A stretch of DNA of 60,110 bases from a virus (lineage: Duplodnaviria; Caudoviricetes). Location: positions 1 through 60,110 of IMG/VR virus record IMGVR_UViG_3300008110_000109, one strand, 5' to 3'. Made by a program: the position numbers and the translations under genes. Positions within the stretch are counted from its first letter, which is position 1; each line of letters begins with the position of its first letter. This document shows positions 1,164 through 47,480 of the stretch, one piece after another. The notes beneath the pieces are model-generated. The model was not told the DNA's origin. It did no database searches and saw only the letters and a list, made by a program, of their open reading frames with translations.

Positions 1164-1224
1164 AGGATGTTAACAGCAAATTTTATACACTAGACTTTTA
1201 ATCTAACCAGTAAAATACATCCTG
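1164..1224 (+). ncRNA. ACAGCAA-stem RNA copy 3 carrying a Lys(TTT)-type anticodon stem-loop
   Basis: AGGATGT/ACATCCT stem; internal TAGA-CTTTTAA-TCTA hairpin (1191-1205). Confidence 0.75.
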
Positions 1225-2789: not shown

Positions 2790-3437
2790 ATGTCAAAAAA
2801 GATTTTAATATCAGGTTGTAGTCATGTATTCGGACACGGTTTTGATGACAGTCTAGATGGAAAATTTCCCAGCCAGTATGCTTGGCCGCATATGATACAA
2901 CAAAATTTTGACTGTGAGACAATCAATTTAAGTTCACCAGGTAGTAGTCCTATTTCCTGTATAGAAGGCATTCAAAATTTTAAAAATAAAAAAGAATTAA
3001 GTGCAATTATGATTATATTGCCAGGATCTAATCGTTATCTTTATCGAACATTAGACCAGAATTCTAATCCGCAAGATGTTTATTATACAGCATACGGACA
3101 AATAAATTCTAATTGGGATAGAGTATTAGAAAAATATTATAGAGTTTGCCATAATTGGAGAACTAGTGATATAAATTTTATTTCTTATGCAGGTTACCTG
3201 CAACACCTATCTGTTTCTCACAAAATACCTTTATGGTTAGGTACAGTTCTTGATGAAGATCATACTTTGCTTAAAAGACACGGATTAAATTTAAACTTTA
3301 GTCCTAGTTGGGAAACATATTGCCAAACTCGAAATTTTGATAGACTAGCCGATGGGCATTACGGTCACAATGCTCACAAGACATTCTTCAGTGAGTTTGT
3401 CAGTCCTTGGTTAGAAAAAAAGTTTTCGCCCCTGTAG
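2790..3437 (+). CDS. SGNH/GDSL-like hydrolase-fold protein
   Basis: SGCSHVFG, NLSSPGSS, DGHYG motifs. Confidence 0.6.
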   Translation: MSKKILISGCSHVFGHGFDDSLDGKFPSQYAWPHMIQQNFDCETINLSSPGSSPISCIEGIQNFKNKKELSAIMIILPGSNRYLYRTLDQNSNPQDVYYTAYGQINSNWDRVLEKYYRVCHNWRTSDINFISYAGYLQHLSVSHKIPLWLGTVLDEDHTLLKRHGLNLNFSPSWETYCQTRNFDRLADGHYGHNAHKTFFSEFVSPWLEKKFSPL

Positions 3438-3526
3438 CTTAATGGTAAAGACGCGAGCTTATACCTCGCCAAAGCACAGGCCAGATAAGCCTGAGTGTGC
3501 AGGTTCGACTCCTGCCAGGGGCACCA
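3428..3526 (+). tRNA. tRNA-Ile(TAT) with a 29-nt extra arm ending in a GAT-centred 7-nt loop
   Basis: GCGAG-CTTATAC-CTCGC anticodon arm; extra arm CAGGC-CAGATAA-GCCTG; T-arm; CCA. Confidence 0.85.
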
Positions 3527-3718
3527 TTAACGTTTTTTTATTTTGCGACGAATAGCTAGATGAACATCGCTTTCGTCACGTGCAAGACTAGCAAGTAGTC
3601 CTGTAAGGAATCCACGTTCCCAGAGTATTCGTTCGCTCGTAGAGCTGAACTTTTTACCACGTGCTGCCTCTGATAGCATGTAGTTAACAAGATCAACGAA
3701 TTTCTGTTCTGGTTCCAT
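3527..3718 (-). CDS. Hypothetical protein (63 aa, likely start MEPEQ)
   Basis: Fills inter-tRNA gap; TAAATA 5 nt upstream of ATG. Confidence 0.6.
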   Translation of the reverse strand: MEPEQKFVDLVNYMLSEAARGKKFSSTSERILWERGFLTGLLASLARDESDVHLAIRRKIKKR

Positions 3719-3747
3719 ATAATTATTTAATAGATAAGTAAGATTAT

Positions 3748-3831
3748 GCCCTGGTGGCGGAATTGGTAGACGCACTGGATTTAGGTTCCAGCGCCTAAAG
3801 CGTGGGGGTTCGAGTCCCCCCTAGGGCACCA
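3748..3831 (+). tRNA. tRNA-Leu(TAG)
   Basis: Loop TTTAGGT, long variable arm, CCA. Confidence 0.95.
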
Positions 3832-3913: not shown

Positions 3914-4000
3914 ATAATAAAGCACACTTTGCCAAACTATAGGTTTGGTTGTAAGGACTTCACACCACCGTAGAGAAAAGTGATGAGTGTGCTTTACTAT
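3914..4000 (+). ncRNA. Unassigned structured RNA between tRNA-Gly and tRNA-Arg
   Basis: Terminal stem ATAATAAAGCACACTT / GAGTGTGCTTTACTAT; internal GCCAAAC/GTTTGGT hairpin. Confidence 0.55.
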
Positions 4001-4075
4001 CGGGCTTTGGTGAAATGGATATCATTTCGGTCTTCGAAACCGACGGTGGGAGTTCGATCCTCTCAAGCCCGGCCA
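4001..4075 (+). tRNA. tRNA-Arg(TCG)
   Basis: Loop CTTCGAA, CCA. Confidence 0.92.
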
Positions 4076-4082
4076 AAAATAG

Positions 4083-4111
4083 TTGACACAGTCTAGGCTA
4101 GAATGTATAAT
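4083..4111 (+). promoter_or_regulatory. sigma70-type promoter
   Basis: TTGACA-17 nt-TATAAT. Confidence 0.9.
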
Positions 4112-4117
4112 TACGTT

Positions 4118-4226
4118 GTAGCCGTAAGCAAATAGGCAAAGCTCCCGCTATGCTCATAGCATAGGTCAGGGGACGGGTCGGGATATAATCCAGGATTCCA
4201 TGGAGGTTCGAAGCCTCCCGGCTACA
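4118..4226 (+). ncRNA. tRNA-like RNA with expanded anticodon/variable region, no encoded CCA
   Basis: GTAGCCG/CGGCTAC acceptor, D-like arm, T-arm GGAGG-TTCGAAG-CCTCC, 58-nt middle with hairpin CTATG-CTCATAG-CATAG. Confidence 0.7.
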
Positions 4227-4235
4227 TAAGATATA

Positions 4236-4809: not shown

Positions 4810-4839
4810 TTGACAGTGAAGTAGAAATTACTATATAAT
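4810..4839 (+). promoter_or_regulatory. sigma70-type promoter
   Basis: TTGACA-18 nt-TATAAT. Confidence 0.8.
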
Positions 4840-5770: not shown

Positions 5771-5923
5771 ATGCCAATGTATGAAACAACTGTAAGAACA
5801 CCCGGTGGTGAAGAAAAGAAAAGAATCTATGCGGATACACCGCAAGAGGCTAAAAAACTTTTTGAACAACTGTACGGTGGACCAAGAGCAGTTCCATACA
5901 TTCCACATATTGTACCAAGTTAA
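5771..5923 (+). CDS. Hypothetical protein (50 aa); not in ORF track
   Basis: AAGGA RBS; MPMYETTVRTPGGEEKKRIYADTPQEAKKLFEQLYGG; fills inter-tRNA gap. Confidence 0.7.
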   Translation: MPMYETTVRTPGGEEKKRIYADTPQEAKKLFEQLYGGPRAVPYIPHIVPS

Positions 5924-5927
5924 CAGA

Positions 5928-6001
5928 CGCGGGTTAGAGAAACGGTAACTCAAGAGTCTCATAAGCTCTAGATCCTGGTTCGATTCCGGGACCCGCAACC
6001 A
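5928..6001 (+). tRNA. tRNA-fMet-like (CAT)
   Basis: C1:A72 mismatch, loop CTCATAA, CCA; lacks the full three G-C anticodon-stem pairs. Confidence 0.85.
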
Positions 6002-6016
6002 ATTTAGGAGAACGCA

Positions 6017-6214
6017 ATGATAAAAAATAAAATCAAGCCCGTTCGACTGAAGAACGTTTTTAATAATCAAGAAGTCATTTGTGACGATTATACTAACGTT
6101 CGGACTATCGACGGCAACGACTTCGTCGAAGTCCATTTTGAAAATCAAACTCGAAAATTTTGGCTTAACAAAGGACCTTTAGAAAAGGTAAAAGAGAAGT
6201 CCAAAAAGAGTTGA
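6017..6214 (+). CDS. Hypothetical protein
   Basis: AGGAG RBS, 65 aa. Confidence 0.75.
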   Translation: MIKNKIKPVRLKNVFNNQEVICDDYTNVRTIDGNDFVEVHFENQTRKFWLNKGPLEKVKEKSKKS

Positions 6215-6239
6215 CAATAATTCAAATCTATACTATAAT
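6211..6239 (+). promoter_or_regulatory. sigma70-type promoter for the RNA + Ro60-like unit
   Basis: TTGACA-17 nt-TATAAT. Confidence 0.9.
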
Positions 6240-6276: not shown

Positions 6277-6442
6277 AGGATCGGTACAGCAACATTCATA
6301 TTACTATGAATCGTTGGACCCTATGGTAGTTCGTTGGAGCGAAGCAGGTAAAACTGCCTAGCGTTGAAGGCGGCTATTGAAATAGACCAACAAGCTCAGA
6401 GTGATGGCCTGAGTAAAATAAAAGCAGTCAACAACGATCCTG
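6277..6442 (+). ncRNA. ACAGCAA-stem RNA copy 4
   Basis: AGGATCG-GT-ACAGCAA...CGATCCTG; internal ATTCATA/TATGAAT, GTTGG/CCAAC, GCAG/CTGC, CTCAG/CTGAG helices. Confidence 0.8.
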
Positions 6443-6453
6443 TTTGTATTCCT

Positions 6454-6683
6454 AGGATGACTACAGCAATCTAAAATACTCTGAACTCCAGCTATAGAAA
6501 GTGGTCGCAGGACACAGTAGAAATACTGTTCTAGAAATAGACACTCAAGGAATAGCTAGGCCGGCAAAGTCCGGATATGATGTACATACAGAAAAACATG
6601 TAATAGGCAACATGAATGTTGCTAGGGTCTGAGTGCCGTAATTGATCAGACCAGAAAATAAACAAATTGGCACGATCATCCTG
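6454..6683 (+). ncRNA. ACAGCAA-stem RNA copy 5
   Basis: AGGATGA-CT-ACAGCAA...TCATCCTG; GAAA-tetraloop hairpins and a possible GTGCC/GGCAC pseudoknot. Confidence 0.8.
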
Positions 6684-6691
6684 TTAAATTT

Positions 6692-6745
6692 AGAATGTTA
6701 ACAGCAACTTTAATTTTCAAGCATATCGAAAAACAATACATTCTG
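6692..6745 (+). ncRNA. ACAGCAA-stem RNA copy 6, in the leader of the Ro60-like gene
   Basis: AGAATGT-TA-ACAGCAA...ACATTCTG; internal TTTTC/GAAAA hairpin. Confidence 0.75.
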
Positions 6746-6759
6746 TAAAGGTAATTAAA

Positions 6760-8172
6760 ATGAACGCATTTGTAAACGCAATCGCAAATCAAGAAGCCCG
6801 TACTGCTAATGGCATGAAGGCTCGTAAGTCAACTGCTTCGGCGTGTGTTGACCTGTTCTACAAGATCGGCGCAAGCCGTGGTAAGGACATCACAGGCGAC
6901 TTCACTGCCGCCTACGTGGAAAACAGTGATGTAGCACTACGTATCGCACAATGGGCACGTGATGTCCGTGGTGGTGCAGGTGAACGTCAACTGTTCCGCG
7001 ACATTCTAGTACATCTAGAAAAGCGTGACCCAGACGCCGCTTTGGCTTTGCTTCGCAAGGTTCCAGAAGTGGGTCGTTGGGATGACATCTTTGTCTTCCA
7101 AAGCCCAGTTCTGAAGTCAGCCGCTTATACCATGTTGGGTGATGCCCTACGTGCTAGTAACGGACTGGCTGCAAAGTGGACTCCTCGTAAGGGTCAGATT
7201 GCCGCTGAAGTTCGTGCCTTCTTTGGCATGACTCCAAAGCAATACCGTAAGAGCCTTGTGGCACTTACAAAGGTTGTTGAAACCCAGATGTGTGCTGGAG
7301 ACTGGGATAACATCAACTTCAGTCACGTTCCTTCTGTAGCGTCTCGACTATACAAGAAGGCATTCAACCGTCACAGCCCAGCGTTCGCTGAGTATGTTGC
7401 CAAGTTGGTAAGTGGTGATAAGACTGTTAAGGTTAACGCCTCTGCAATCTTCCCACATGACGTGTTGAAGGGAGTGATCGGTAGCTACCGTGCAACTTTA
7501 GACAAGACAGAAACTGACCACATTGTGGCACAGTGGGACAGCTTGCCTAACTACGTTGGAGATGCCAGCATCATGCCAATCGTAGACGTTAGCGGTTCTA
7601 TGTCCTGCCCAGCAGGCAAGAACACTAATGTAACTTGCATGGATGTTTCAATCAGCTTGGGCTTGTACCTAGCAGATAAGAACAAGGGTGTGTTCAAGGA
7701 CACTTTCTTGACTTTCTCAGACAAGCCACAACTTGTTACTCTAAAGGGTAACATTGTTGACAAGGTTGCTCAAATGAGCAAGAGTGATTGGGACATGAGT
7801 ACTAACCTACATGCGGCTATGAACAAGATTCTAGACGTAGCGGTTAAGAACTCAGTACCACAAAGTGACATGCCAGGCATGTTGCTGATCTTGTCAGACA
7901 TGCAGTTTAACCAATGCGCCCGTTACGACGATAGCGCAATGCAAATGATCGAACGCAAGTTCGCAGATGCAGGTTACACTGTGCCACAGATTGTTTTCTG
8001 GAACCTAAACAGTTCAGACAACGTACCTGTAAAGGCAGACAAGAGTGGTGCCGCATTGGTAAGTGGATTCAGTCCATCAATCATGACTAGCTTGCTAGCC
8101 GCTGATTTGGACCAGTTCACTCCAGAAGGCATCATGCTTAAGACTGTAATGAGTGATCGTTACAAGTTGTAA
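6760..8172 (+). CDS. Ro60/TROVE-like RNA-binding protein with C-terminal vWA domain (DUF2828-type)
   Basis: RDVRGGAGER, GRWDD, LAAKWTPR in the helical region; MIDAS DVSGS, STN, ILSDMQF and VFWNL in the vWA domain. Confidence 0.8.
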   Translation: MNAFVNAIANQEARTANGMKARKSTASACVDLFYKIGASRGKDITGDFTAAYVENSDVALRIAQWARDVRGGAGERQLFRDILVHLEKRDPDAALALLRKVPEVGRWDDIFVFQSPVLKSAAYTMLGDALRASNGLAAKWTPRKGQIAAEVRAFFGMTPKQYRKSLVALTKVVETQMCAGDWDNINFSHVPSVASRLYKKAFNRHSPAFAEYVAKLVSGDKTVKVNASAIFPHDVLKGVIGSYRATLDKTETDHIVAQWDSLPNYVGDASIMPIVDVSGSMSCPAGKNTNVTCMDVSISLGLYLADKNKGVFKDTFLTFSDKPQLVTLKGNIVDKVAQMSKSDWDMSTNLHAAMNKILDVAVKNSVPQSDMPGMLLILSDMQFNQCARYDDSAMQMIERKFADAGYTVPQIVFWNLNSSDNVPVKADKSGAALVSGFSPSIMTSLLAADLDQFTPEGIMLKTVMSDRYKL

Positions 8173-8201
8173 ACTGTTGTAGAAATACAACAAAGTTTGG
8201 G

Positions 8202-8226
8202 TAGCACCTTCGGGTGCTATTTTTTT
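8202..8226 (+). terminator. Rho-independent terminator
   Basis: TAGCACC-TTCG-GGTGCTA followed by T7. Confidence 0.9.
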
Positions 8227-18944: not shown

Positions 18945-19536
18945 CTAGATATGTAATTTGAAAGCAGACTAAATTTGAAAGTCCAAAGTTTCCAGCACCG
19001 TGCCACATGTCTCCCTGCCAAGTGTAGACATCGCCTTTTTTCCAATGCCCTATTACATCATTGCCTAGCTGAATAGTTTGACCAAAATTCCAGTCCGTTA
19101 TCATAATAGCAGCTCGTTTAATCTTACCATAGTCAGCTTGATTGATGTTTTGAAATTTTACAAATGCAGAAAAACTATCATAGTGCCACATAAGGCAGCA
19201 CCCCGGAGTAAGTTTTAACAGGGTGCAGTGATGTTTTGTATGTGCAAATTTATCTGCAAATCGCTTAAGGTCTCCGTGCAGTCTAGGAGTTATGTCCATA
19301 TAGTGTCTAGTACACTCTTTGGTTACACCATTATCTAAATATAGATCTTCTAGTGCAATTTTCTTTTCAGTAGAAAATACTTCCCAAGCATCATCTTTAG
19401 GAACTTCGTCGATCATGAAAGTTTCTTTCCAATCAGCAGTTAGCTCATGTTCGTTAATAGTAATATCAAAATGGTATTTGTCATATGTTCCGTCACGCCA
19501 ATTAACGAAACTAGGTAGTTGTGTTATATCAGTCAC
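18937..19536 (-). CDS. 2OG-Fe(II) oxygenase/cupin-like protein
   Basis: WHYD...WHGAGN. Confidence 0.65.
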   Translation of the reverse strand: MTDITQLPSFVNWRDGTYDKYHFDITINEHELTADWKETFMIDEVPKDDAWEVFSTEKKIALEDLYLDNGVTKECTRHYMDITPRLHGDLKRFADKFAHTKHHCTLLKLTPGCCLMWHYDSFSAFVKFQNINQADYGKIKRAAIMITDWNFGQTIQLGNDVIGHWKKGDVYTWQGDMWHGAGNFGLSNLVCFQITYLDV

Positions 19537-20476
19537 AATGCGATTCCTTAAGATGATTTATTAAGTATTGTTTATTTTCAACATTAATAAGTTTTAGATG
19601 TTCTATCATTAGATGCTTATCTTCAGCTGACAGGTTTTTTATATCTAATTTGCTAGGATAGGTTAAGATGTTTGTAGTCCATGCATAGGAATTTTCTACA
19701 ATCCAAGAACTTATATTAGGTAGGTCCAACCAATTGTTTGTATGTATAGTAGTGTGTATTGAAAATTTAAAAGAATTATCAGTAAGCTGCTTTAAAAAAT
19801 CTTCTATGCTTTGCCAATTACTACCAGACCTTACACGGTCATTAACTTCTTTATAGCCGTCAACACTTACAATAAATTCTACTAACTTAAATTTTTTTAA
19901 TAAATTTATAGTATCTGCACTTAACAGAAAAGTACCGTTGGTGTTATAGGTAACTGAAACCTGTTGTTTGTTAATTATTTTTTGAAGAAATCTAATGTGT
20001 CTATTTGTCATCAGCGGTTCGCCGCCCAGAAACAAAACTTTGTTAATTGTTTGGGGAATAGATTCTATTTCAGATGTTGCAGTAATGTAAAACTTTTTTG
20101 ACTGTCCTGGATTATCTTTTTCAGCCCACGAACTGCTAAATTCGCCAAAGCAGCCATCACAGGTTAAATTACAGATGTTGTCAAAGCCTACTTCAAAGTA
20201 TTCTAGAGCAACAGTATCATTAGTATACGTTGCATTAAACTTTTGTCGAAGACTTTCTTTACCTAGGCTTTCTTCATAATAGCATTTTTCACAGCCTTTA
20301 ATCGGAATGCCTTTTAAACTCATTTCTCTTAAACTGTGATACTCTGGTAAATTTAAAACATTGTCTAGGTCGCCATCAAATTTAGACACTGGTTCTTTAA
20401 AACGACAACAGGGAAATATTCTGTTATCTCCTCTTAAGTTAGTGTGTTTCCAAAAAGCAGCGCAGTATGAATTCAT
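19529..20476 (-). CDS. Radical SAM protein with N-terminal twitch/SPASM-like Cys cluster
   Basis: CNLTCDGC, GGEP, PCC...CEKC. Confidence 0.9.
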   Translation of the reverse strand: MNSYCAAFWKHTNLRGDNRIFPCCRFKEPVSKFDGDLDNVLNLPEYHSLREMSLKGIPIKGCEKCYYEESLGKESLRQKFNATYTNDTVALEYFEVGFDNICNLTCDGCFGEFSSSWAEKDNPGQSKKFYITATSEIESIPQTINKVLFLGGEPLMTNRHIRFLQKIINKQQVSVTYNTNGTFLLSADTINLLKKFKLVEFIVSVDGYKEVNDRVRSGSNWQSIEDFLKQLTDNSFKFSIHTTIHTNNWLDLPNISSWIVENSYAWTTNILTYPSKLDIKNLSAEDKHLMIEHLKLINVENKQYLINHLKESHCD

Positions 20477-24382: not shown

Positions 24383-25571
24383 CATTGCTTTTTGTCTAGT
24401 AGATAATTTACATAGCATAAAAGAAAATTGGATCAAAGAAATAACTAAAAATATTTCTAATTTTACTATCTCTAATGTTAACAACAAAGGCTTTGATTTA
24501 TTTCAAGGATTAGACGAAGACCACCTGTTAAAGTTAGTGTCAGAACTTGAGTATAGTCATGCTGTGGTGTTCTCTACTGGGACTGAATTTATCAATGGAG
24601 ATAGTTTCTTTAGAGAGATCAGAGCAGCAGTTGAGCAAGACTATTTTGTTATTGGACATGTGCTTGATAGAAAAGATGCCTATTACGAATTGCACCATCA
24701 ATGCTACGTAATAAATCTTAATTACTATCGAAAATTTAAATTGCCTAAAATAGGTAAGCAAGAATTGGGTTCGATGCATACTCAAGAGGTGCCTTGGCGC
24801 AGTTATGAGAATTGGCATGACGATTATACTCCTAAAACAATCAGTGGTGGCGATCAAATTAAACAGTACCATCACAAGTGTCACGGATGGCATATTTTAA
24901 AAACAGCATTTGATAAAGATTTGCCTGTGCTAGTATTTGACGAGAACATACGTAACAGTAAAAAACATCATTACCCTGAATCAACTACAGACTTTTATAA
25001 AAATTTATCTTGGATTCATTATCGACAAAACTTCTGTCTTACAGAATTTATACATACGTCGAATACCGAAACAGTTAATTTTCCTCCTAGGCAGAGATAT
25101 GATCAAATTATAACTCCGGCTAGTGGATTATGGTTTTTACCGTTTTTAAAAAGCAATACTGGAAAAGTAATCATGTATGATTATAATCAGCAGGCACTAA
25201 ATTATTGGAAGAATAATATTCCCGATGGTATTAACGTAGAGTTTGTGTTGTGTGATCTGTACAACGGAATAAATTTCTTTGATAAAATAGATCCAAAGTT
25301 ACTTACACTAATCAATCTATCTAATATCTTTAACTATGAAGGTACAGTGGCTCTTTATAATTTAAAGTATAGAAACTATAAAGAAAATTTAACACTAGAT
25401 GAAATTGAAAAGCATTTACCCAATGCTGATGTTAACTTTACTTCTAGGGCTACTACCGGCTTTCATGCCAATCATTACAATCAATTGTTTAGTAGGATTA
25501 GTCTTATCAAACGAATAAACATTACAGAATTAATTAAGCCAACATGGCATATTAATTCGGATTGGATTTAA
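24348..25571 (+). CDS. Hypothetical protein (likely start MIKFP)
   Basis: Long ORF in operon. Confidence 0.7.
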   Translation: MIKFPAIEKSCNIAFCLVDNLHSIKENWIKEITKNISNFTISNVNNKGFDLFQGLDEDHLLKLVSELEYSHAVVFSTGTEFINGDSFFREIRAAVEQDYFVIGHVLDRKDAYYELHHQCYVINLNYYRKFKLPKIGKQELGSMHTQEVPWRSYENWHDDYTPKTISGGDQIKQYHHKCHGWHILKTAFDKDLPVLVFDENIRNSKKHHYPESTTDFYKNLSWIHYRQNFCLTEFIHTSNTETVNFPPRQRYDQIITPASGLWFLPFLKSNTGKVIMYDYNQQALNYWKNNIPDGINVEFVLCDLYNGINFFDKIDPKLLTLINLSNIFNYEGTVALYNLKYRNYKENLTLDEIEKHLPNADVNFTSRATTGFHANHYNQLFSRISLIKRINITELIKPTWHINSDWI

Positions 25572-26712
25572 TTTGATTAATGTAGTTATTAAAAAATATC
25601 TTACTTTCGACTAAACTTGTCCTGTTAGAATAACTGTTCAAAAACGTTTTTAAAAATTCATTAGGTATAGTTTCATTCCTCATCTCATCTAGTTCATTTG
25701 TAAAATTAATTAAATGAGGTATAAGATCTTCGCCGTCACTATCTAAATAAGAAATTATATTCTCATTAAGTATTTTTGAACGCACTTGGTCCTTGAATTC
25801 TTTATTGGTATTTTTTATGTTCATCCATGTTGGATATTGCATAACTTGATATGATTTTTTAAACTCTGGAAACTTTTCTTTTACAAACTGATTTAAAAGA
25901 TCTATTTCGTTTACAGTATAAACACTGATTACAGAGTGTACCCTAATCTGTGTGTGTTTTTCTTTTCTTAACAATATTAAATTTTTATAGAAATCCATGT
26001 TTTTTACTATAATTTCAAAATTAGAACCATGTCGAACATAATCATTTAATTTACCATACGCATCAATACTTAAATTAATATCTAAACTTTTACATTCTAT
26101 TAAGCCGTCTAGTATTACATCAATAGGTTCAATAGTACAGTTAGTACTTAAAATAATAGACAAATCTTGAAATTTATTATTATCTTTTAATTTTTTAAAG
26201 AACGCAGAAGTATTAGGACTTAACATTGGCTCACCACCAAATACTTCAATTTCTTCAAGAAACTCAACATCTACATCATCATACATAGTATTTTTTGAAT
26301 ACTTTTTTTCCGATAATGTAGTTCCGTAAAGTGCTAACTCATCGTCAAATATTAGATGACTGTAAGGACTACCGCAGCTTCTGCATTTAAGATTGCAAAC
26401 GTTATCTAAATTTAATTCTAATCTTCGTAATTTAGTGTCTTTGGTAAATTCGTACTTTGTATTACCATGTATTCTTTTTGTAGCTGTTATCCCAGCTGCT
26501 TCTTCTTCAAAACACTGACACCCTTCTACTACTTCTCCATTGAGCATTCGACTACGCATATCATTCATAAATTCTCCGTTGCGTACTTGATTAATTGGAA
26601 TTATTTTTTTAAAAGGTGCTTCATTCATGAATTGACAACAAGGTAACACTATGTTATCTGATTGCAGACTAGAACTTATAAAAGGATGTACACAGTAAGT
26701 TTTAGATATCAT
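25552..26712 (-). CDS. Radical SAM protein with twitch-like domain
   Basis: CNLKCRSC, GGEP. Confidence 0.9.
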   Translation of the reverse strand: MISKTYCVHPFISSSLQSDNIVLPCCQFMNEAPFKKIIPINQVRNGEFMNDMRSRMLNGEVVEGCQCFEEEAAGITATKRIHGNTKYEFTKDTKLRRLELNLDNVCNLKCRSCGSPYSHLIFDDELALYGTTLSEKKYSKNTMYDDVDVEFLEEIEVFGGEPMLSPNTSAFFKKLKDNNKFQDLSIILSTNCTIEPIDVILDGLIECKSLDINLSIDAYGKLNDYVRHGSNFEIIVKNMDFYKNLILLRKEKHTQIRVHSVISVYTVNEIDLLNQFVKEKFPEFKKSYQVMQYPTWMNIKNTNKEFKDQVRSKILNENIISYLDSDGEDLIPHLINFTNELDEMRNETIPNEFLKTFLNSYSNRTSLVESKIFFNNYINQIKSNPN

Positions 26713-33100: not shown

Positions 33101-34366
33101 ATGAATCCAAGTAAAACATTTTGTATGCATCCTTTTACAGGACTAGCTACTAGAGAAGATGGCGCAATAAAAGTCTGCTGCCGTAGTGCGCCTGTAGGTT
33201 TTATTCAAAATCAGAGCCTTGAAGAATTATGGAATAACGATACTATGCGAGAAGTTCGTAGGCAGGTATTAAACAACGAGCGACCGGATGTATGTAAACC
33301 TTGTTTTGATTTAGAAGACCAGGGTGTAGAAAGTCTACGCCAACGACATATAAACGGTGTTATTCCTGAAGCACGTATTAATCTATATCCTAACGCAGTA
33401 TCTAAAATGCGTAATGATTACACAATGCCGTTTGAATTTCCTACGATGGAAATCAAATTAAACAATCTTTGTAATTTAAGATGCAGGATGTGTAATCCTT
33501 TAGACAGTACCAGTTGGAGTGACTGGGATAAGATTGAAGAATTTTATATTAAAGAAAACAACTATCTTGTGCCTGTGATAAATGATCTAGGACTCAAGAC
33601 CAGTAGATACATTTGTCCGTTTGATGATACGGACAATTGGTGGGCAAGTTTTGAAAAACTATTGCCACACTTTAGGCGTGTTGAGTTTGCCGGAGGTGAA
33701 CCTCTAATGGATCCTCAACACTATAAAATATTAGACATGCTGAAGCCCTATGCTAAAAACATAGAAATCAAGTATGCTACTAATGCTACAACACTAGGAA
33801 TCAAAGGTGGAAGAACTATACACGATTATTGGCCTCACTTTAAGTCAGTTGCCGTTAACGTCTCTATTGACGGCATTCACGATGTTTATAACTACATTCG
33901 TGGTAACGGCAATTTTAGTGAAATTGAGCAGAACATTAAAGAGATACAGACATTACCAAACATTTCAAGAATAGTAGGTGCATTTACAGCACAGGCTGGT
34001 AACATACTACAGGCTGCAGAGTGTATTGATTATTTTATTAATACAATGGGCATTGTATTTTACAGCCATCGTGTAAGTTATCCTAACTGCTTGTCAGCAC
34101 AAGTGTTGCCAACGGAATTAAAAGCATTAGCAATTACTAAACTACTAGCAGTTAAATCACAGATAGATGACTGGGACACAATTAAAAAGAATCCCCTGTT
34201 AGGTAAAGTCACATATCAACAAATACAAGACAATATTAATTACTTACAAGCCAAAGATCAAAATCACTTGTGGCCAGACTTTGTTGAATTTAATAGAAGA
34301 TTGGATGCTACACGCCATCAAGGGCCTTTGGTAAGCATAGTACCAGAATTTAAGCCCTATATATAA
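33101..34366 (+). CDS. Radical SAM protein with twitch-like domain
   Basis: CNLRCRMC, AGGEP, VCC...CKPC. Confidence 0.9.
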   Translation: MNPSKTFCMHPFTGLATREDGAIKVCCRSAPVGFIQNQSLEELWNNDTMREVRRQVLNNERPDVCKPCFDLEDQGVESLRQRHINGVIPEARINLYPNAVSKMRNDYTMPFEFPTMEIKLNNLCNLRCRMCNPLDSTSWSDWDKIEEFYIKENNYLVPVINDLGLKTSRYICPFDDTDNWWASFEKLLPHFRRVEFAGGEPLMDPQHYKILDMLKPYAKNIEIKYATNATTLGIKGGRTIHDYWPHFKSVAVNVSIDGIHDVYNYIRGNGNFSEIEQNIKEIQTLPNISRIVGAFTAQAGNILQAAECIDYFINTMGIVFYSHRVSYPNCLSAQVLPTELKALAITKLLAVKSQIDDWDTIKKNPLLGKVTYQQIQDNINYLQAKDQNHLWPDFVEFNRRLDATRHQGPLVSIVPEFKPYI

Positions 34367-36186: not shown

Positions 36187-36194
36187 GTATTTTG

Positions 36195-37100
36195 ATGTAT
36201 AAAGTAACCAGCAGATGGGGCCACCAAAATTCTGTTAAGGTTGAATGGAATCTAGGAAAACGCTGTAATTACGATTGCAGTTATTGTCCTAGTTCCATTC
36301 ATGATAACACTAGCCCCCATACTCCAATAGAAACTTTAAAAAGTGTAGTTGATAAACTCCTTACTCTTAACAAGCCAGTACGTTTAAGTTTTACTGGCGG
36401 AGAGCCCTGCGTCCATCCCCAATTTGACGAACTAGTGAGATACGCTAGGCACAGAGGTATTCATTGGATTAGTGTAACTACAAACGGTACTAGGCCACCC
36501 GATTTTTATTCTAGTCTACCTATTGATCAATATGTTTTTAGCATACATCTAGAATATGAATGGCAGCGTGTTTATAACTGTGTGAATACTGTACACAAAA
36601 CAACTGAAATAAATGTCATAGCACAAATCATGGCACATTACGATCATATGCCTGCTGTGTTACAATTACGTGCTAAATGTTTATTAGATCATATACCTAG
36701 TACAATAAGACGCATCCGTTGGACAGAAGGCGACCATGACTTATTCGATGATATGCGTTATCATCCAGACGACCTGTTATGGATTAAAGAACAAGATGCA
36801 ACAGTTAAGGAAAATACAGTAATTTTCTTAAAAGAAGAACCTGACATGCCTAGACTCAAACACGCCAACGACATTATTAAATTACATCTCAATCAATATA
36901 AAGGATGGACCTGTAATGCTGGCATAGAAAGTCTTATGATCAACTGGGACGGAGAAGTACATCGTGCCACCTGTAGAGTTGGTGGCAGTCTAGGCAATAT
37001 CTATAACAACACTTTTTTGGTGCCATCTGCACCCGTTACATGCGATAGAAATTTCTGCACCTGTGCCGCAGATATACCGTTAACTAAACAGGCTTTATAG
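36195..37100 (+). CDS. Radical SAM protein with C-terminal SPASM-like Cys
   Basis: CNYDCSYC, TGGEP, CNAG...C. Confidence 0.9.
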   Translation: MYKVTSRWGHQNSVKVEWNLGKRCNYDCSYCPSSIHDNTSPHTPIETLKSVVDKLLTLNKPVRLSFTGGEPCVHPQFDELVRYARHRGIHWISVTTNGTRPPDFYSSLPIDQYVFSIHLEYEWQRVYNCVNTVHKTTEINVIAQIMAHYDHMPAVLQLRAKCLLDHIPSTIRRIRWTEGDHDLFDDMRYHPDDLLWIKEQDATVKENTVIFLKEEPDMPRLKHANDIIKLHLNQYKGWTCNAGIESLMINWDGEVHRATCRVGGSLGNIYNNTFLVPSAPVTCDRNFCTCAADIPLTKQAL

Positions 37101-38067
37101 GAATGAATTTTGTTGTGTTAATTTCAGGTTGGCAGTAACAAAATTCTTTATAGCACGTAGTTGGAATAATATTGGGATTAAATTTCTCTATAAAATTGGT
37201 ATCTAAAATATTGTGTTTATAATTCAAATCATATAGATTCTCTCCGCAGGCACCTTGTAAGTTTCCAACTTTATCAATATACAAGGTATCTATTCCTATA
37301 TTACATTTCCAATTTTTAAATCTATTCAAATTATTTAAAGACAACCAATTATTAGAAACGTTAGTTTTTTTAAAATTATTGTAGGTTATTGTAGGTCGTA
37401 CATTAGGTATTTTTTTAGATCTAAACCAATAAAAAGGATTTGGAATTCTTTTCAAAGATTTAGAAATAAAGTTTTTTTGATCAGCAGTATATGTTATAGT
37501 TTCATGAAATACTTCTAATGCAGTAATTGGCCATCTATACTTACTACGTTTTAATTGATCAATTATATCAAGGCATTTATTCCATTCGTGCGGGTCCATT
37601 AATACCATTGCTGTAAGATTTACATTTTTTTTATAAAGTAAATCTGCTACTGAAATCACATGATCACTTTTAATATACTGGTGATGACAACTAATCATTA
37701 CATGATCAAATAAATGTGCATTATCATTCCACCACCTTAATGTTCTACTACCATTGGTAGAGATACTGACCAACACATCAAAATTTTCCTTGAAGTGTTG
37801 TATAAAAGATTCTATGTTAGGCCATATAGTAGGTTCGCCACCAATAATATGTAATAAAAATTTTGTTTTGTTTTTATTATTTTTATAGTAGTTTAATAAA
37901 AAAGAAAGATTCTGAGTTAAGGGTTCTAAATCTGGCCATTTATGAGTTCCTTCATTGCTACCGGGAAAACAATACCAGCACTTGTAATTGCACATATTAC
38001 TTAAAAACAATTCTATTCTTAAAAAATTAGAATTGACATTTGAATCTATTTTTATAATTTCATTCAT
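37084..38067 (-). CDS. Radical SAM protein
   Basis: CNYKCWYC, GGEPT. Confidence 0.9.
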   Translation of the reverse strand: MNEIIKIDSNVNSNFLRIELFLSNMCNYKCWYCFPGSNEGTHKWPDLEPLTQNLSFLLNYYKNNKNKTKFLLHIIGGEPTIWPNIESFIQHFKENFDVLVSISTNGSRTLRWWNDNAHLFDHVMISCHHQYIKSDHVISVADLLYKKNVNLTAMVLMDPHEWNKCLDIIDQLKRSKYRWPITALEVFHETITYTADQKNFISKSLKRIPNPFYWFRSKKIPNVRPTITYNNFKKTNVSNNWLSLNNLNRFKNWKCNIGIDTLYIDKVGNLQGACGENLYDLNYKHNILDTNFIEKFNPNIIPTTCYKEFCYCQPEINTTKFIPIKPV

Positions 38068-38797
38068 ATAAGTGTTTCATAACATACTTGGCGATTTGAA
38101 TTTGACCGTTAAGATTTGGATGTCCGCCTGCACACATATTATCTTTACATATAATAGACAGGTACTCGTTACCTAAATAATATTTCTGTATATGTGATAA
38201 AAACACATTTGAAAAATTATTGTAGTCATACATTTGAAGTAGTTTAATTTCTATTCCTCTAACAAGACAAAAATCTATAGTACTTAAAATATCTTTATGG
38301 TACTTGCATACTATATGCTCGTCGGGCCAGGATGCTAGTCCTCTAATAGTTGCTCTCTCTGCGGTATCATACGATGTTTCGTCATCGATCACAACTGATG
38401 CCCATTTTGATTCATGAACAAATGGTGTGTCATTATTAGGATACAATGTTCTATAAGGTATTGTACATTGTATCAATACCAGTATATCTTTTGGTTCAAA
38501 CTTTTCCAGCAGCCCTAGTAACTTTTCTTTAGAATTAATATCTATCTGTTCTTGACTGCTACCGCCGTGTGCCTGATTAAGGACATCGATTCCAGTAAGT
38601 TTAGATAGTTGATTAGGCCATGCTGCTTCTTTTTCTGCATAATACAATTCAGACTCTTTACTGAATTCCCCTGCATCATACCATGCAGCTTTTACTTTTC
38701 GAATTTGTTCTAGATTAAGATTAGGAAAAAATTTATCATTAGCAGCTTCTACCCCCGAAGTCCAACTACAGCCATTTGCGTATATTATTTTGTACAT
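38060..38797 (-). CDS. SGNH-like protein
   Basis: ANGCSWT, NQAHGGSS, GHP. Confidence 0.6.
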   Translation of the reverse strand: MYKIIYANGCSWTSGVEAANDKFFPNLNLEQIRKVKAAWYDAGEFSKESELYYAEKEAAWPNQLSKLTGIDVLNQAHGGSSQEQIDINSKEKLLGLLEKFEPKDILVLIQCTIPYRTLYPNNDTPFVHESKWASVVIDDETSYDTAERATIRGLASWPDEHIVCKYHKDILSTIDFCLVRGIEIKLLQMYDYNNFSNVFLSHIQKYYLGNEYLSIICKDNMCAGGHPNLNGQIQIAKYVMKHLYE

Positions 38798-40173
38798 ATA
38801 TGTTTCAACTCCGGGAAGACTTTAGAAAAATTAGTTCCTCGAACGTTATCCATCTTTTCAATATATTCAACAAATGCAGGTAACTGAGCAGTATGGTCTT
38901 CAGCATCCATAAAGTCTAATACTGCTTGCCAGCGTTTCCATCCGTAGGGATTGTGTTTCCAGTAATCTTCATCTTGGCGATAGTTGGTGTACAGCCATGT
39001 AGCTAGATCAGCAAACTTTTGTCTTATTTCAACCTTGTCTTCTTCCGGCAAACATTTAATACTTAAAAATGTAGGAATATACAAAAGGTGCATGTTGATA
39101 ATTCCGCCGCCGGCTTGAATACCGCCAGTGACATTTTCAAAGTTTACTTTCTTAAAATTCTGCTGAATCTTCCACTTGGCTAGTTCAGGCAAGTGTTTGA
39201 TGTTTAATATCTGTATAGCAGTAGCAATACTAACTTGTATGTTGTCAGGAGTATTGTCCAGCTTGTGAAGATTTTGTTCTATTGTAGTCCAATCACTAGG
39301 ATAGCGAATATAGAAATTTCTACTGTCCACTGCGTCAATACTAAATCCTACTTTAACTTTTTTAAACTGTTTCCATAGGTCAATAATATCATCGTCTACT
39401 AATAATCCATTTGTATTGTAGCGTACAAGGATCTTGTCTGCGTAACCCTGTCTAATAATTTCTTCAAGGAACAACTTATGCTCTTTGATCAGCAATGGTT
39501 CACCGCCGGCAAAGTACACCTGCTTGAGGTTAGGAATCTGTGCGTACATCTCTTTCCAAAAGTCTGGATTTTCATACCAGTAGTTGTCAAACGTATCGCT
39601 GTTCCATGACATTTGTTCTTTGAGCTCTTTGGCCTGAAATAACGGATATACTTTTTTGTGATCCGCTACCCACATACTGCTGTCATGTGGACTACACATA
39701 ATACATTTTAAGTTACAGGTATGTCCTAGTCGCAAGTCTAGATAAACTAGTGATTCGGGAACTGTACCATCTTCTTCAGTTTGTTTTATAAGCTCAGGCA
39801 AATCTATACCATCTTCAACCCATGTGCCAGTTTCCCAAATACGCTTACTAGCAACACCGTTAAATTCTTCTTTATGACATTTGGCACAACTAGCAGGAAT
39901 CTTTCCTTCCAACATGGTCAGGCGTACAACCTTCATGTACTCGTTGTTCCAAGCACTCATAGGAGTTTCGCGGCCAAAGTTTGCTGGTCGGCCTGTTTCG
40001 TTTTTTACTAGACCAATTTCGTGGTCAGTGCCTGCTCCACTACTGTTAGCATTACAGCACAATCGCATATCACCGTTAGGACGGGTAGCAAAGTGTATCC
40101 ATGGTAACACACAGAAAGTTTTACTTCCTGTCAGTGTTTCTATTTTATCTTGCCATTGTTTAATTTTATTCAT
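38785..40173 (-). CDS. Radical SAM protein with twitch-like domain (likely start MNKIK)
   Basis: CNLKCIMC, AGGEP, LCC...CAKC. Confidence 0.9.
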   Translation of the reverse strand: MNKIKQWQDKIETLTGSKTFCVLPWIHFATRPNGDMRLCCNANSSGAGTDHEIGLVKNETGRPANFGRETPMSAWNNEYMKVVRLTMLEGKIPASCAKCHKEEFNGVASKRIWETGTWVEDGIDLPELIKQTEEDGTVPESLVYLDLRLGHTCNLKCIMCSPHDSSMWVADHKKVYPLFQAKELKEQMSWNSDTFDNYWYENPDFWKEMYAQIPNLKQVYFAGGEPLLIKEHKLFLEEIIRQGYADKILVRYNTNGLLVDDDIIDLWKQFKKVKVGFSIDAVDSRNFYIRYPSDWTTIEQNLHKLDNTPDNIQVSIATAIQILNIKHLPELAKWKIQQNFKKVNFENVTGGIQAGGGIINMHLLYIPTFLSIKCLPEEDKVEIRQKFADLATWLYTNYRQDEDYWKHNPYGWKRWQAVLDFMDAEDHTAQLPAFVEYIEKMDNVRGTNFSKVFPELKHICTK

Positions 40174-41206
40174 TGCAGTTTTTAGCACATGACCATGGCT
40201 TATTTGGTCCGGTGGTTATTTCATTGAGATTAGACCAAATGCCGTCTTCGATTGCTGTACTATTTAAATTAAAAATTCCTAGACTTTTAAATTTATTTTT
40301 AGTATCTTCAACCATTTTATTTCTTAAACTATGTATAGTAATTTTTTCTTTAAGAGGTTCTTCTAACCAATCACTGCCTACCCAGCAACATGGCAACACG
40401 TTACCTCGACTGTCAATATACAGTTCTTTATTGTTTATACATCTAGGTTTTACTGTAGCAGCAGAAACCTGAGATTCCCAAGATTTAAGATTAGCTGCTA
40501 CTTCTTCTAATTTGATCACAGCTACTTTTTTAAAACGTTCAGTGACAGCAGGTTTAAGACTATATTCATAGTTGCCATTTCTATCCTCAACATTAAACTG
40601 TTCCATGTCATAAAATCTAGCAGTTGATTTAAAATTAACTTTACCAAATCCTATATCTAGCATTTCTTTTTCAAACTGATCTGCTTCGAGCTCGTTATGT
40701 TCAAAAATTAAACAATCAACAGTAGCGTAGCCTCCGGCATCTATAAATGCTTTTGCATTAGCTATAATTTTGTTCCAATCTGTTCCCCGACGATATAATA
40801 CATGACTGTCAGCAAAACCATCTATGCCAAATGTTACTTCGTGTTTGTCTTTGAGTGCTTTTGCTAGATTAGCCCACCATGTTGTAGATCTAGCACTACC
40901 ATTTGTGTGTAGACCTAATCTTACATGAGGGTTGGCGTTACGAATATATTCAAAAATTTCAAGACAGTCTTGTGCTATAATAGGGTCACCATAATTACCA
41001 CAGGCATAAAAATTAGAAAGTTTAGATAGAAAATCTAAAGAGAACCAACTTTTAAATTGATCTAAAGTAATTTCATTTTTTCCAACAAAAGAACGTTCTT
41101 GTCCTCCGTTGTAGTTTCTAGCACACATAGGACAGCTAGCTTGACATTTATCTGTAAGCTCAATGTGCAGTTGTTCTATAAGGTGTAAATGATTTAAGCC
41201 GGGCAT
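40166..41206 (-). CDS. Radical SAM/SPASM protein
   Basis: CQASCPMC, GNYGDP, PCC. Confidence 0.9.
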   Translation of the reverse strand: MPGLNHLHLIEQLHIELTDKCQASCPMCARNYNGGQERSFVGKNEITLDQFKSWFSLDFLSKLSNFYACGNYGDPIIAQDCLEIFEYIRNANPHVRLGLHTNGSARSTTWWANLAKALKDKHEVTFGIDGFADSHVLYRRGTDWNKIIANAKAFIDAGGYATVDCLIFEHNELEADQFEKEMLDIGFGKVNFKSTARFYDMEQFNVEDRNGNYEYSLKPAVTERFKKVAVIKLEEVAANLKSWESQVSAATVKPRCINNKELYIDSRGNVLPCCWVGSDWLEEPLKEKITIHSLRNKMVEDTKNKFKSLGIFNLNSTAIEDGIWSNLNEITTGPNKPWSCAKNCNE

Positions 41207-46731: not shown

Positions 46732-47480
46732 AAATTTATTTTGTTAGCAATTTTCTCTGCTATCATCTTATTACTGTTTATTCCGGGATGAACTAAATCT
46801 CTAGCAAAATCTGTTGGTATGTAGATATCGCAATTTAAAAGTCTACCAGTATCAGGAAACAAAGAAGCTTCGTAATGTTTAATTTTTTCCCAATAAATGT
46901 TGCTGGTTTTACTAGCGATCAATGCATATGATTCAGAGTGTGAATCATCATTAGACCATGCAGAGAAATAATGATGACTCTTGTTCCAATCTCCGCAATT
47001 TTCTAAATACCTTTTATTGTAGTAAACAGTTCTAGAATAATGAGTCCATAGATTAATAACTCCCAAAGGCATAGGATAAGAATGTCTTAAAATAGTTGCA
47101 TTGTGCAAAGAATAATTAATAGAACTCCCCTCAACACCTAAATTAACGACTGGCACCTTTAAAAGATTAGATAGATGAACAGCTATAGTATTTGTATTAT
47201 CTACTCCTATTCCAAACACATTACTACAACCAAACATTACTAATGAGTTAGCCCAATCTATTTCTTTAAAATTTTTAGTTCTATACCCCTGTTTATTTCT
47301 TGTATAGTTAACAATATTATTTCGATAGTACCAATCCTCAGGCATTATTTTTAAATTTTTTTCAAACAACTCCTTGCTATCGTAGCCTGCAAAATGTTTT
47401 TCTATTTTGGCATCTATAGGAAGAAATTGATTTGATTTTATTAGTTTAGGTACAGAACTGAATATTAATCTATTTTGCAT
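46728..47480 (-). CDS. SGNH-like protein
   Basis: FGCSNVFG, NLGVEG, ARDLVHPG. Confidence 0.6.
   Translation of the reverse strand: MQNRLIFSSVPKLIKSNQFLPIDAKIEKHFAGYDSKELFEKNLKIMPEDWYYRNNIVNYTRNKQGYRTKNFKEIDWANSLVMFGCSNVFGIGVDNTNTIAVHLSNLLKVPVVNLGVEGSSINYSLHNATILRHSYPMPLGVINLWTHYSRTVYYNKRYLENCGDWNKSHHYFSAWSNDDSHSESYALIASKTSNIYWEKIKHYEASLFPDTGRLLNCDIYIPTDFARDLVHPGINSNKMIAEKIANKINL

Follow-up and report, generated by a model that had tools for sequence, protein, structure and literature searches.

Results

Copy 3 and the genes around it

The window, by which we mean the whole stretch of DNA that was analysed, comprises the 60,110 nucleotides (nt) of the IMG/VR virus record IMGVR_UViG_3300008110_000109 (Caudoviricetes), and the element under study, designated copy 3, is a candidate small Y-RNA-like RNA at positions 1164-1223 of the + strand. 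With an estimated completeness of 16% and related contigs of up to 345-356 kb, the record derives from a jumbo phage. The start of the window lies inside a phage tRNA array, with 26 tRNAs found by ARAGORN within the first 6 kb, and copy 3 is flanked by tRNA-Arg(gcg) (1083-1158) on its 5' side and by tRNA-Leu(taa) (1233-1310) on its 3' side. It sits 5 nt past the upstream tRNA, and such copies stand about 10 nt ahead of the next one. Six copies of the same scaffold occur in the window. Copies 1-3 are inside the tRNA array, and copies 4-6 stand in tandem, with no tRNAs nearby, directly upstream of the open reading frame (ORF) 6760-8172, which is on the same strand as copy 3, 5.5 kb downstream of it, and encodes a predicted Ro60-like protein.

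Copy 3 consists of a closing stem, a conserved junction, a second stem, an internal loop and a hairpin resembling an anticodon arm, all on the + strand. The 5' strand of the closing stem P1, AGGATGT (1164-1170), pairs with the 3' strand ACATCCT (1217-1223), which is followed by a conserved G at 1224. The single-stranded junction TAACAGCAA (1171-1179) is conserved and is presumed to be the protein-recognition motif. P2 (ATTTTAT/GTAAAAT, strands 1180-1186 and 1210-1216) spans the region 1180-1216 and encloses the internal loop ACAC/ACCA and the apical hairpin P3 (1191-1205), with the sequence TAGA-CTTTTAA-TCTA, a stem at 1191-1194/1202-1205 and a loop at 1195-1201. The minimum free energy fold is made up of these three stacked helices and the 7-nt apical loop. 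Neither ARAGORN nor Rfam finds a tRNA at 1159-1232; copy 3 has no cloverleaf, and both sequence and fold lack a T arm, a D arm and a closed acceptor stem. A pseudoknot between AACAG and CUGUU after P1 was rejected on geometry, because a single linker base would need to bridge about 10 base pairs (bp); the contact is conceivable only as an alternative pairing.

The scaffold is a strand-specific RNA family

The scaffold common to the six copies of the window, and to hundreds of copies in related phages, is composed of a 7-bp closing stem, a single-stranded NN-ACAGCAA and a G after the 3' strand. All six stems in the window are perfect and read AGGATAC (twice), AGGATGT, AGGATCG, AGGATGA and AGAATGT, with compensating differences. 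Among 28 aligned small copies from several phage families, all seven P1 pairs show changes on both sides; these copies were preselected for a perfect P1, so the pair types are informative and the percentage paired is not. The junction positions C14, A15, G16, C17, A18 and A19 are invariant in 28/28 of these copies, as is the G after P1, next to which a U-rich sequence is found in the phage group of the window.

The family is markedly strand-specific. In 80 loci of related phages, the motif with a perfect partner was counted 287 times on the same strand as the adjacent protein gene, versus 14 times on the other strand. A stricter pattern rule, applied to a larger set of related loci, returned 400 copies on the gene strand and 22 on the opposite one (263 distinct sequences). 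A covariance model, R1, built from 28 small copies with only P1 set as paired, gave 138 matches at E≤1e-3 in 1.0 Mb of related contigs, and 138/138 are on the strand of the Ro-like gene. Within the window, R1 scores copy 3 at 71.4 bits (E 1.8e-13), copy 1 at 69.1 bits and copy 6 at 56.3 bits, all three being training sequences, and the next-best match reaches 15 bits. The model is unsuited to large cargos (the sequence carried on the scaffold): it gives copy 2 just 11 bits and misses copies 4 and 5. Pattern matches at 11894 and 36275 were rejected as scaffold copies because they have no support from R1. The ACAGCAA at 2377 was also rejected, since it belongs to a perfect promoter-like TTGACA box. 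Rfam 15 holds no family for the scaffold, and a self-cleaving ribozyme or intron identity was dropped, as no such Rfam family matched at E≤1. Single-linkage clustering of the cargos merged A/U-rich classes and was of little use for class counts.

Copy 3 probably displays an anticodon-arm mimic

The preliminary description of this DNA had reported that the cargo of copy 3 reads TAGA-CTTTTAA-TCTA and that its 7-nt loop is identical to that of the tRNA-Lys at 36-110, which we confirmed in the sequence. We aligned copy 3 with its orthologues (10 distinct sequences from 20 instances). Standard pairs fill 97% of the pair cells, versus 38-52% with slid partners, and the covariation score of the class was reached by 0/500 shuffles. 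Changes on both sides are observed at three of the five P3 pairs and at two of the seven P1 pairs. P2 is 93.5% paired in the tested register and shows no double changes; an alternative register fits one related locus (L254) better, and this A/U-rich helix is ambiguous.

The P3 stems of the orthologues are TAGA/TCTA, TTGA/TCAA, TGAA/TTCA and CGGA/TCTG, and their loops are CTTTTAA, CTTGTAA, CTTCTAA and CTCTTAA. Using tRNA numbering, the loop has 7 nt in 10/10 orthologues, without any variation at C32, U33, U36, A37 and A38. U or C occupies position 34, and U, G or C position 35, which yields UUU in six variants, UGU in two, UCU in one and CUU in one. In the stem, the pair A31-U39, next to the loop, shows no change, and G30-C40 is retained in 9/10, with the distal pairs covarying freely. 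The hairpin therefore has the features of an anticodon arm: a 7-nt loop with a pyrimidine at 32, U33 and a purine at 37, carried by a 4-5-bp stem whose changes are compensatory. In four orthologues, TTGACTTTTAATCAA corresponds exactly to positions 28-42 of E. coli lysT.

Loops of this type are enriched in the scaffold family as a whole. A CT...AA loop closed by a stem of 4 bp or more is found in 30 of 106 distinct pattern-based cargos, versus 1.0 +/- 0.9 in 200 shuffles (maximum 4), and a [CT]T...[AG]. loop in 40 of the 106, versus 5.7 +/- 2.2. The corresponding counts for 75 distinct cargos derived from the covariance model are 22, versus 0.75 +/- 0.85 in 300 dinucleotide shuffles (maximum 4), and 28, versus 4.5 +/- 2.2; the cargo sequences are related, so that all these counts overstate independence. 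Anticodon-type loops mark the copy-3 class, a CTTGAAA/CTCGAAA/CTGTAAA class, a CTGCAAA class and two more CTTTTAA classes. They also occur on the arms of tRNA-like modules (CTTATAA, CTTAAAA, CTGCAAA and CTTCTAA) and in the distant phages CPX (CTGCTAA), Rumpelstiltskin (CTGTTAA) and BUCT-ZZ01 (CTTTTAC). The enrichment for 7-nt anticodon loops that the preliminary description led one to expect is thus a property of some classes, including that of copy 3, and not of others, such as those of copies 1 and 6.

The conserved letters extend from the loop into the stem and coincide with the cleavage site of a known immune nuclease. According to bioRxiv 10.1101/2025.02.04.636281, AriB of the PARIS system recognizes the site U36-A-A-U-C|A41 and cuts tRNA-Lys and tRNA-Thr(UGU); UAAU is common to all its targets, and the change U39>A in E. 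coli tRNA abolished cleavage. In the copy-3 class, TAATC is present in 9/10 sequences and TAATCA in four orthologues; the copy in the window has TAATC followed by T, and no D loop. The two commonest loops of the class, UUU and UGU, are those of the AriB targets Lys(UUU) and Thr(UGU). The tRNA-Lys(UUU) of the phage itself (36-110, + strand) has the G+C-rich arm TCCGG-CTTTTAA-CCGGT and reads TAACCG at positions 36-41, with C at position 39. Because P3 covaries, five loop positions are invariant and UAAUC is conserved, comparison of these sequences supports the view that copy 3 displays a mimic of the Lys(UUU)/Thr(UGU) anticodon arm.

The neighbouring gene encodes a predicted Ro60-type protein

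The protein of 470 amino acids encoded by ORF 6760-8172 (+ strand) is predicted to comprise a TROVE-type helical ring and a vWA domain. It matches DUF2828 (6e-27) and DUF7788 (2e-49) in Pfam, and PHROG 850, annotated as 'RNA-binding protein', at 7.7e-141. An AlphaFold2 model computed from 58 sequences has a predicted local distance difference test score of 91.3 and a predicted template modelling (TM) score of 0.90. The first 13 places among the Foldseek matches in the PDB are taken by Ro60/TROVE proteins, aligned over the full length, with E values of 1e-7 to 1e-4 and TM scores of 0.38-0.64 (query-normalised). They include Ro60 of Thermus phage phiLo (9kop, 9l5y), Xenopus Ro60 with RNA, Rsr of D. 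radiodurans and human Ro60, and isolated vWA domains rank below them. The DxSxS motif of the metal ion-dependent adhesion site is intact, D276, S278 and S280 being invariant in the 58 sequences. On account of these structural matches and invariant residues, the model identifies ORF 6760-8172 as a Ro60-type ring protein from a branch outside Pfam TROVE.

Homologues of this protein are encoded in at least 692 deposited phage genomes (E≤1e-20). With regard to the gene neighbourhood, an ORF for a dual-specificity-phosphatase-like protein and one for a metallophosphoesterase lie just downstream of the Ro-like gene in the window. Among the homologues, that of LP-048 has an RtcB-like ligase and a phosphohydrolase as neighbours, that of pEa_SNUABM_50 a putative RNA ligase, and that of CF1 a metallophosphoesterase. 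As context, these ligases and phosphoesterases favour a theme of tRNA damage or repair.

The RNA motif and the Ro60-like gene occur together

A DNA pattern scan of IMG/VR that was blind to the protein returned 119 loci, mostly by chance, as 109 of them have at most five of the seven stem pairs. All seven pairs are present in 13 matches at 10 loci, and every other match has five or fewer. The Ro60-like protein is encoded in nine of these ten contigs, the tenth being a fragment of 11.9 kb. All nine belong to one phage group, and this co-occurrence could by itself be explained by common descent.

The motif was also found in more distant phages. Among ten isolated phages examined, a stem with [A/G]CAGCAA adjoins the homologous gene in seven: Vibrio phage KVP40 (two copies, the second of which, at 3965-4005 of the extracted locus, overlaps the start codon of the gene with its 3' strand), cyanophage BUCT-ZZ01 (three copies, one in the leader of the gene), E. 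coli Felixounavirus ekra (four copies, within the tRNA array downstream of the gene), mycobacteriophage Rumpelstiltskin (three), Listeria phage LP-048 (three), Campylobacter phage CPX (two) and Staphylococcus phage CF1 (three). For eight of the ten phages, the protein is 33-49% identical to that of the window, the Felixounavirus homologues being at 36-37%. R1 recovers copies on which it was not trained, in CPX (31 bits, E 2.4e-4) and in CF1 (27 bits, E 0.002), and scores those of ekra weakly (18 bits). The letters of the stem vary with the phage group (AGGAT.., AGACC.., AGACATT, TGGAC.., AGGAA.. and others); the [A/G]CAGCAA core is retained, as is the G that follows the stem. Taken together, these comparisons support the view that the scaffold marks a Y-RNA-like RNA family tied to the Ro60-like gene, a point missing from the preliminary description.

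Citrobacter phage Ci1 has two tRNA-like genes of about 115 nt right after its Ro60-like gene, at 5891-6005 and 6012-6125 of the extracted locus. The first carries an insertion of about 43 nt 5' of the anticodon loop, made up of a hairpin and then CTACAGCAA, and its loop is CTCTTAA, followed by TC. In this gene, the stem and ACAGCAA seem to be built into an unpermuted tRNA frame.

Other copies and features of the window

The remaining copies, all on the + strand, carry different cargos. Copy 1 (571-624) combines the scaffold AGGATAC/GTATCCT with the cargo hairpin CTTTT-TTTGGTAT-AAAAG. Cargos of this type consist of AAC, a short stem, a loop reading TGCGGAT, TTGGATA or TTTGGTAT, and then GAAAA(A)T. 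They are recognizable in an E. coli phage (5386-5440), a mycobacteriophage (3972-4021) and a Listeria phage (2663-2718; all coordinates are those of the extracted loci), with the TGCGGAT loop recurring in ekra and Rumpelstiltskin, and may represent the oldest member of the scaffold family. Copy 2 (794-909) surrounds a circularly permuted tRNA-like module with, in this order, an anticodon-type arm (TTCGC-CTTATAA-GCGAG), a 5-nt variable region, a T arm, a loop-closed acceptor stem and a D arm. The scaffolds of ekra and Rumpelstiltskin also bear a module of this type.

Copy 4 (6277-6441; AGGATCG/CGATCCT) has a structured cargo of 142 nt and copy 5 (6454-6682; AGGATGA/TCATCCT) one of 206 nt; both cargos are kept in relatives, have no Rfam match and contain several predicted hairpins each. 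Comparably long cargos are found on the scaffold in KVP40 (about 595-840 of the extracted locus) and BUCT-ZZ01 (about 3651-3830). Copy 6 (6692-6744; AGAATGT/ACATTCT; loop AAGCATATC) is in the 5' leader of the Ro-like gene, whose ribosome site and start codon are 3-16 nt 3' of it, and this position is kept in most related loci. Such a leader copy, also seen in KVP40 and BUCT-ZZ01, is a classic sign of a motif-recognizing protein and suggests translational self-control. The loops of copies 1 and 6 are as the preliminary description gave them.

A promoter-like site with a perfect 12/12 sigma-70 consensus (6211-6239, + strand) precedes copies 4-6 and the Ro-like gene, and a terminator-like hairpin (8199-8222) follows this gene. 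Three more perfect sites of this kind are present in the tRNA region, at 2374-2402, 4083-4111 and 4810-4839, all on the + strand. The one at 4083 is followed, at 4107-4228, by a tRNA-like element with paired ends (GTAGCCG...CGGCTAC), the T arm GGAGGTTCGAAGCCTCC and about 70 extra nt inside, which is called by neither ARAGORN nor Rfam. Rfam finds a tRNA at 3428-3523 (58.7 bits) that ARAGORN misses; this tRNA has a long extra arm, and its loop is CTTATAC (UAU). A weak tRNA-Sec-like match with the loop CTTCTAA (UCU) is present at 2139-2209. Two long inverted repeats stand between tRNA genes: one at 106-334 (22 nt, 91% complementarity) around a stretch of 185 nt, and one at 2514-2682 (20 nt, 95% complementarity) around a stretch of 129 nt that holds a T-arm-like sequence on the opposite strand. 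A near-identity DNA search of phages gave tRNA-sized matches only. Further downstream, between 19529 and 48442, eight of 20 ORFs scanned match radical S-adenosylmethionine families in PHROGs (19529-20476, 25552-26712, 33101-34366, 36192-37100, 37084-38067, 38785-40188, 40166-41206 and 47465-48442), which is unusually dense for one phage region.

Copy 3 in RNA libraries

Twenty public runs labelled as RNA contain 10-15% of the sampled words of 400-1500. Short contigs from four freshwater metatranscriptomes, each of a different study, have the extent of single tRNAs and of copy 3, the cover of copy 3 being from 1158/1162 to 1232/1235. Its individual contigs span 1169-1232, 1162-1234, 1161-1235 and 1161-1232, with zero mismatches and, in the last, one 1-nt gap. 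One contig continues past 1235 into letters which we take to be sequencing adapter. Variants in the RNA libraries add a compensatory change, G1193-C1203 being replaced by A-U. Stretches without cover, which include most of copy 2, are uninformative. These contigs are a weak hint that a unit-sized RNA from copy 3 exists.

Discussion

Proposed role of copy 3

Based on these observations, we lean, with moderate confidence, towards a reading in which copy 3 is a Y-RNA-like RNA that docks on the Ro60-like ring, presents its arm to a factor that reads anticodon loops and contributes to the protection of the tRNA pool, with the leader copy providing self-control. In this scheme, the enzymes that process the neighbouring tRNAs would also cut an RNA of about 65-75 nt out of the tRNA precursor. 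P1 and ACAGCAA would dock on the ring, as the stem of a Y RNA does on Ro60, and the displayed arm would engage a factor that reads the anticodon loops of tRNAs. The particle could then protect the tRNA pool against host defences that cut tRNAs, in one of two ways: the nuclease would be kept occupied (decoy or sequestration), or the Ro particle would be recruited to sites where tRNAs are damaged. The leader copy would let the Ro-like protein limit its own synthesis. A decoy role of copy 3 is plausible, and a pure decoy is a minority possibility.

Several points weigh against this reading. As regards the RNA, the folding energy of copy 3 (-10.7 kcal/mol, z -1.71) is unremarkable, as 15 of 200 shuffles are at least as stable, and the pairing statistics of P1 are partly circular, since the copies were chosen for a complementary stem. 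The RNA-library contigs can show neither ends nor transcription and do not exclude DNA carry-over. As regards the protein, ORF 6760-8172 does not reach Pfam TROVE at E≤0.01, matching only DUF2828 and DUF7788, and a PDB sequence search with it gave no match; no RNA ligase turned up among the 26 ORFs of the window that were scanned. The canonical Ro60-binding motif GNCGAAN0-1G is absent, the motif being NN-ACAGCAA after a 7-bp stem, and the stem part of the Rfam YrlA model (positions 1-22 and 88-114) is unaligned in copy 2. The association with the gene has exceptions: in Ci1, ACAGCAA occurs only within the insertion in the tRNA-like gene, and no motif is present within 3 kb of the gene in Erwinia phage pEa_SNUABM_50 and Ochrobactrum phage vB_OspM_OC.

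The cargos and the nuclease raise further objections. Loops of 9 nt that do not resemble anticodon loops characterize the copy-6 (leader) class, the largest of all, and another loop (UGCGGAU/UUGGUA-like) is conserved in the copy-1 class from E. coli phage to mycobacteriophage. The drift of positions 34-36 within classes is awkward for a decoy tuned to one nuclease. Moreover, U36-A37-A38 is also required by the enzymes that form N6-threonylcarbamoyladenosine at position 37 (t6A37), and its conservation could therefore serve modification or shape. The tRNA-Asn and tRNA-Thr(UGU) of the phage retain TAATC. Finally, the AriB site alone is reported to be insufficient, contacts with the D loop (U16/U17) being needed (bioRxiv 10.1101/2025.02.04.636281).

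Alternative explanations

A more sweeping version of the proposed role, which we regard as unlikely, would make the Ro ring of many tailed phages a modular device whose stem+ACAGCAA RNAs each show a different part of a tRNA, forming a panel of baits against nucleases of the AriB or PrrC type in which copy 3 is the Lys/Thr bait. The RNAs would present either a whole permuted tRNA or the anticodon arm alone (Lys, Thr, Arg, Ser, Cys or other), and altered phage tRNAs would sustain translation. Such a panel would span mycobacteriophages, Felix O1-like, T4-like, Listeria, Staphylococcus and Campylobacter phages, and freshwater jumbo phages.

It is equally improbable, in our estimate, that copy 3 is a Ro-particle RNA whose apex has no tRNA-specific task. 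It would then be a reduced relic of a YrlA-type tRNA-like module, serving only as gate or stabilizer of the ring, as supposed for short Y RNAs, and its loop would be an inherited stable U-turn. Since a complete permuted tRNA, its anticodon-type arm at the same place after ACAGCAA, is found in copy 2 and its relatives, copy 3 could derive from such a module, and both the drift of positions 34-36 and the unrelated loops of other classes would be in line with this origin. A mere relic is nevertheless difficult to reconcile with the retention of positions 32, 33 and 36-38 and of the two loop-proximal pairs while the distal pairs covary, with the constant loop length of 7 nt in 10/10 orthologues, and with the recurrence of an arm with a UUU-type loop in the cyanophage, whose protein is just 48.6% identical.

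Another explanation dispenses with the Ro-like protein altogether. The hairpin alone would soak up a nuclease of the PrrC, RloC or AriB type, or a modification enzyme, and the scaffold would only stabilize and present it. This would suit a hairpin that is a Lys-type anticodon arm including U36AAUC, and the location of copies 1-3, which are part of the tRNA array and 5.5 kb away from the protein gene. In contrast, the scaffold accompanies the Ro60-like gene in different phage families and is present in the leader of this gene, many copies bear cargos unlike anticodon arms, and AriB is described as requiring contacts beyond the arm (bioRxiv 10.1101/2025.02.04.636281), which makes this explanation doubtful, more so than the two before it.

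The spacing of the copies in the array, 5 nt after one tRNA and about 10 nt ahead of the next, together with the conserved G and the U-rich sequence past P1 in the phage group of the window, would also fit a cis-acting element for processing or punctuation of the tRNA operon, in which the stem and a G/U-rich tail guide RNase E, RNase P or RNase III, or pause transcription, and no stable RNA is made. Such an element would be expected neither at only three of about 25 tRNA junctions in the window, nor as tandem copies without nearby tRNAs (6277-6744) and with large conserved cargos, nor with an ACAGCAA kept across phyla beside one protein family, and we consider it very improbable. The least credible explanation, to which we give hardly any weight, is an antisense-type loop, in which the U-turn exposes three to seven bases so that another RNA, such as a messenger or the anticodon of a tRNA, can pair with them quickly. 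Antisense RNAs, too, typically recognize their partners through 7-nt loops whose second base is U. No complementary target was identified, and the conserved letters reach into the stem (U39, C40), where loop pairing has no need of them.

Significance

With the proposed Ro-docked RNA as the preferred reading, a widespread family of phage Ro60-like proteins, whose RNA partners are largely obscure, gains candidate partners. The 7-bp stem with ACAGCAA provides a searchable handle that points to modular partner RNAs across phage families, some of which would display only a tRNA anticodon arm bearing the cut site of a known immune nuclease. If this is true, baits mounted on a Ro ring would constitute a third answer of phages to tRNA-targeting immunity, beside the known replacement tRNAs and tRNA repair. 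The scaffold also exposes an annotation gap, as its RNA genes match no Rfam family and are overlooked or miscalled as odd tRNAs.

Comparison with known systems

The closest known relatives are the YrlA RNAs, which accompany the TROVE-annotated Ro60 genes of over 250 bacteria and phages and for which GNCGAAN0-1G is the likely Ro60 site, according to PMC4201824. The scaffold RNAs resemble them in being small RNAs beside a Ro60-type gene, several per locus, in having 5' and 3' ends that pair into a stem adjoining a short conserved single-stranded motif, and in carrying a tRNA-mimicking apical module. Copy 2 aligns to the T arm, the closed acceptor stem and the D arm of the Rfam YrlA model RF02553 (831-898; 33.4 bits versus a gathering score of 69; model positions 23-87 only), and none of copies 1 and 3-6 matches this model at E≤1. 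The vertebrate Ro60 recognition motif GGUCCGA is listed as the counterpart of GNCGAAN0-1G; the copies read NN-ACAGCAA instead. They differ from YrlA in that the partner protein is of the DUF2828/DUF7788 branch rather than of Pfam TROVE, and in that six copies occur in one window, three of them embedded in a tRNA array. Copy 3, moreover, holds an anticodon-type arm only, whereas YrlA, as portrayed in PMC4201824, replaces that arm by the stem toward the Ro site. The Y RNA Yrn1 of D. radiodurans is drawn in the same source with a 5-bp arm at the place of the tRNA anticodon arm, like copy 3, but with a 6-nt loop, unlike the 7-nt loop with U33 and A37 in 10/10 orthologues of the copy-3 class. A search of the literature retrieved no description of the stem+ACAGCAA handle; the phage YrlA lists of PMC4201824, which lay outside this search, may include the mycobacteriophage tRNA-like class.

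In Thermus phage phiLo, the RNAs Yrl1 and Yrl2, described together with phiRo60, were selected on the basis of a bulged CGAA motif and are tied to the host PNPase (PMC12135203). The window shares with phiLo a phage Ro60 with Y-like RNAs just upstream, and the phiLo protein is among the best structural matches, but the available account of phiLo reports no tRNA or anticodon mimicry for its RNAs. A survey of jumbo phages describes ROT/TROVE proteins as a platform for RNA repair with a tRNA-like partner (PMC7824862). In Bas63, a Felixounavirus of E. coli, the Ro60-like gp130 counters the ppl defence and its gene adjoins a tRNA array; the authors of this 2024 preprint guess that some of the tRNA genes near gp130 are Y RNAs, and describe no RNA motif (PMC11482910). 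The window likewise has a Ro60-like gene by a tRNA array, and the array at this place in the Felixounavirus ekra holds four scaffold copies.

With regard to defence, the tRNA-Lys variant of phage T5 escapes PARIS AriB (PMC11464382), and this resistant tRNA reads UAAACC, with A at position 39 (bioRxiv 10.1101/2025.02.04.636281). The tRNA-Lys of the window also departs at position 39, as that of T5 does. In contrast to the resistant working tRNAs described for T5, copy 3 is no tRNA and keeps the sensitive site, and could act only as a candidate bait or binder. Y RNAs of the YrlA kind are already known, and what is new here is the stem+ACAGCAA handle of a widespread phage Ro60-like system.

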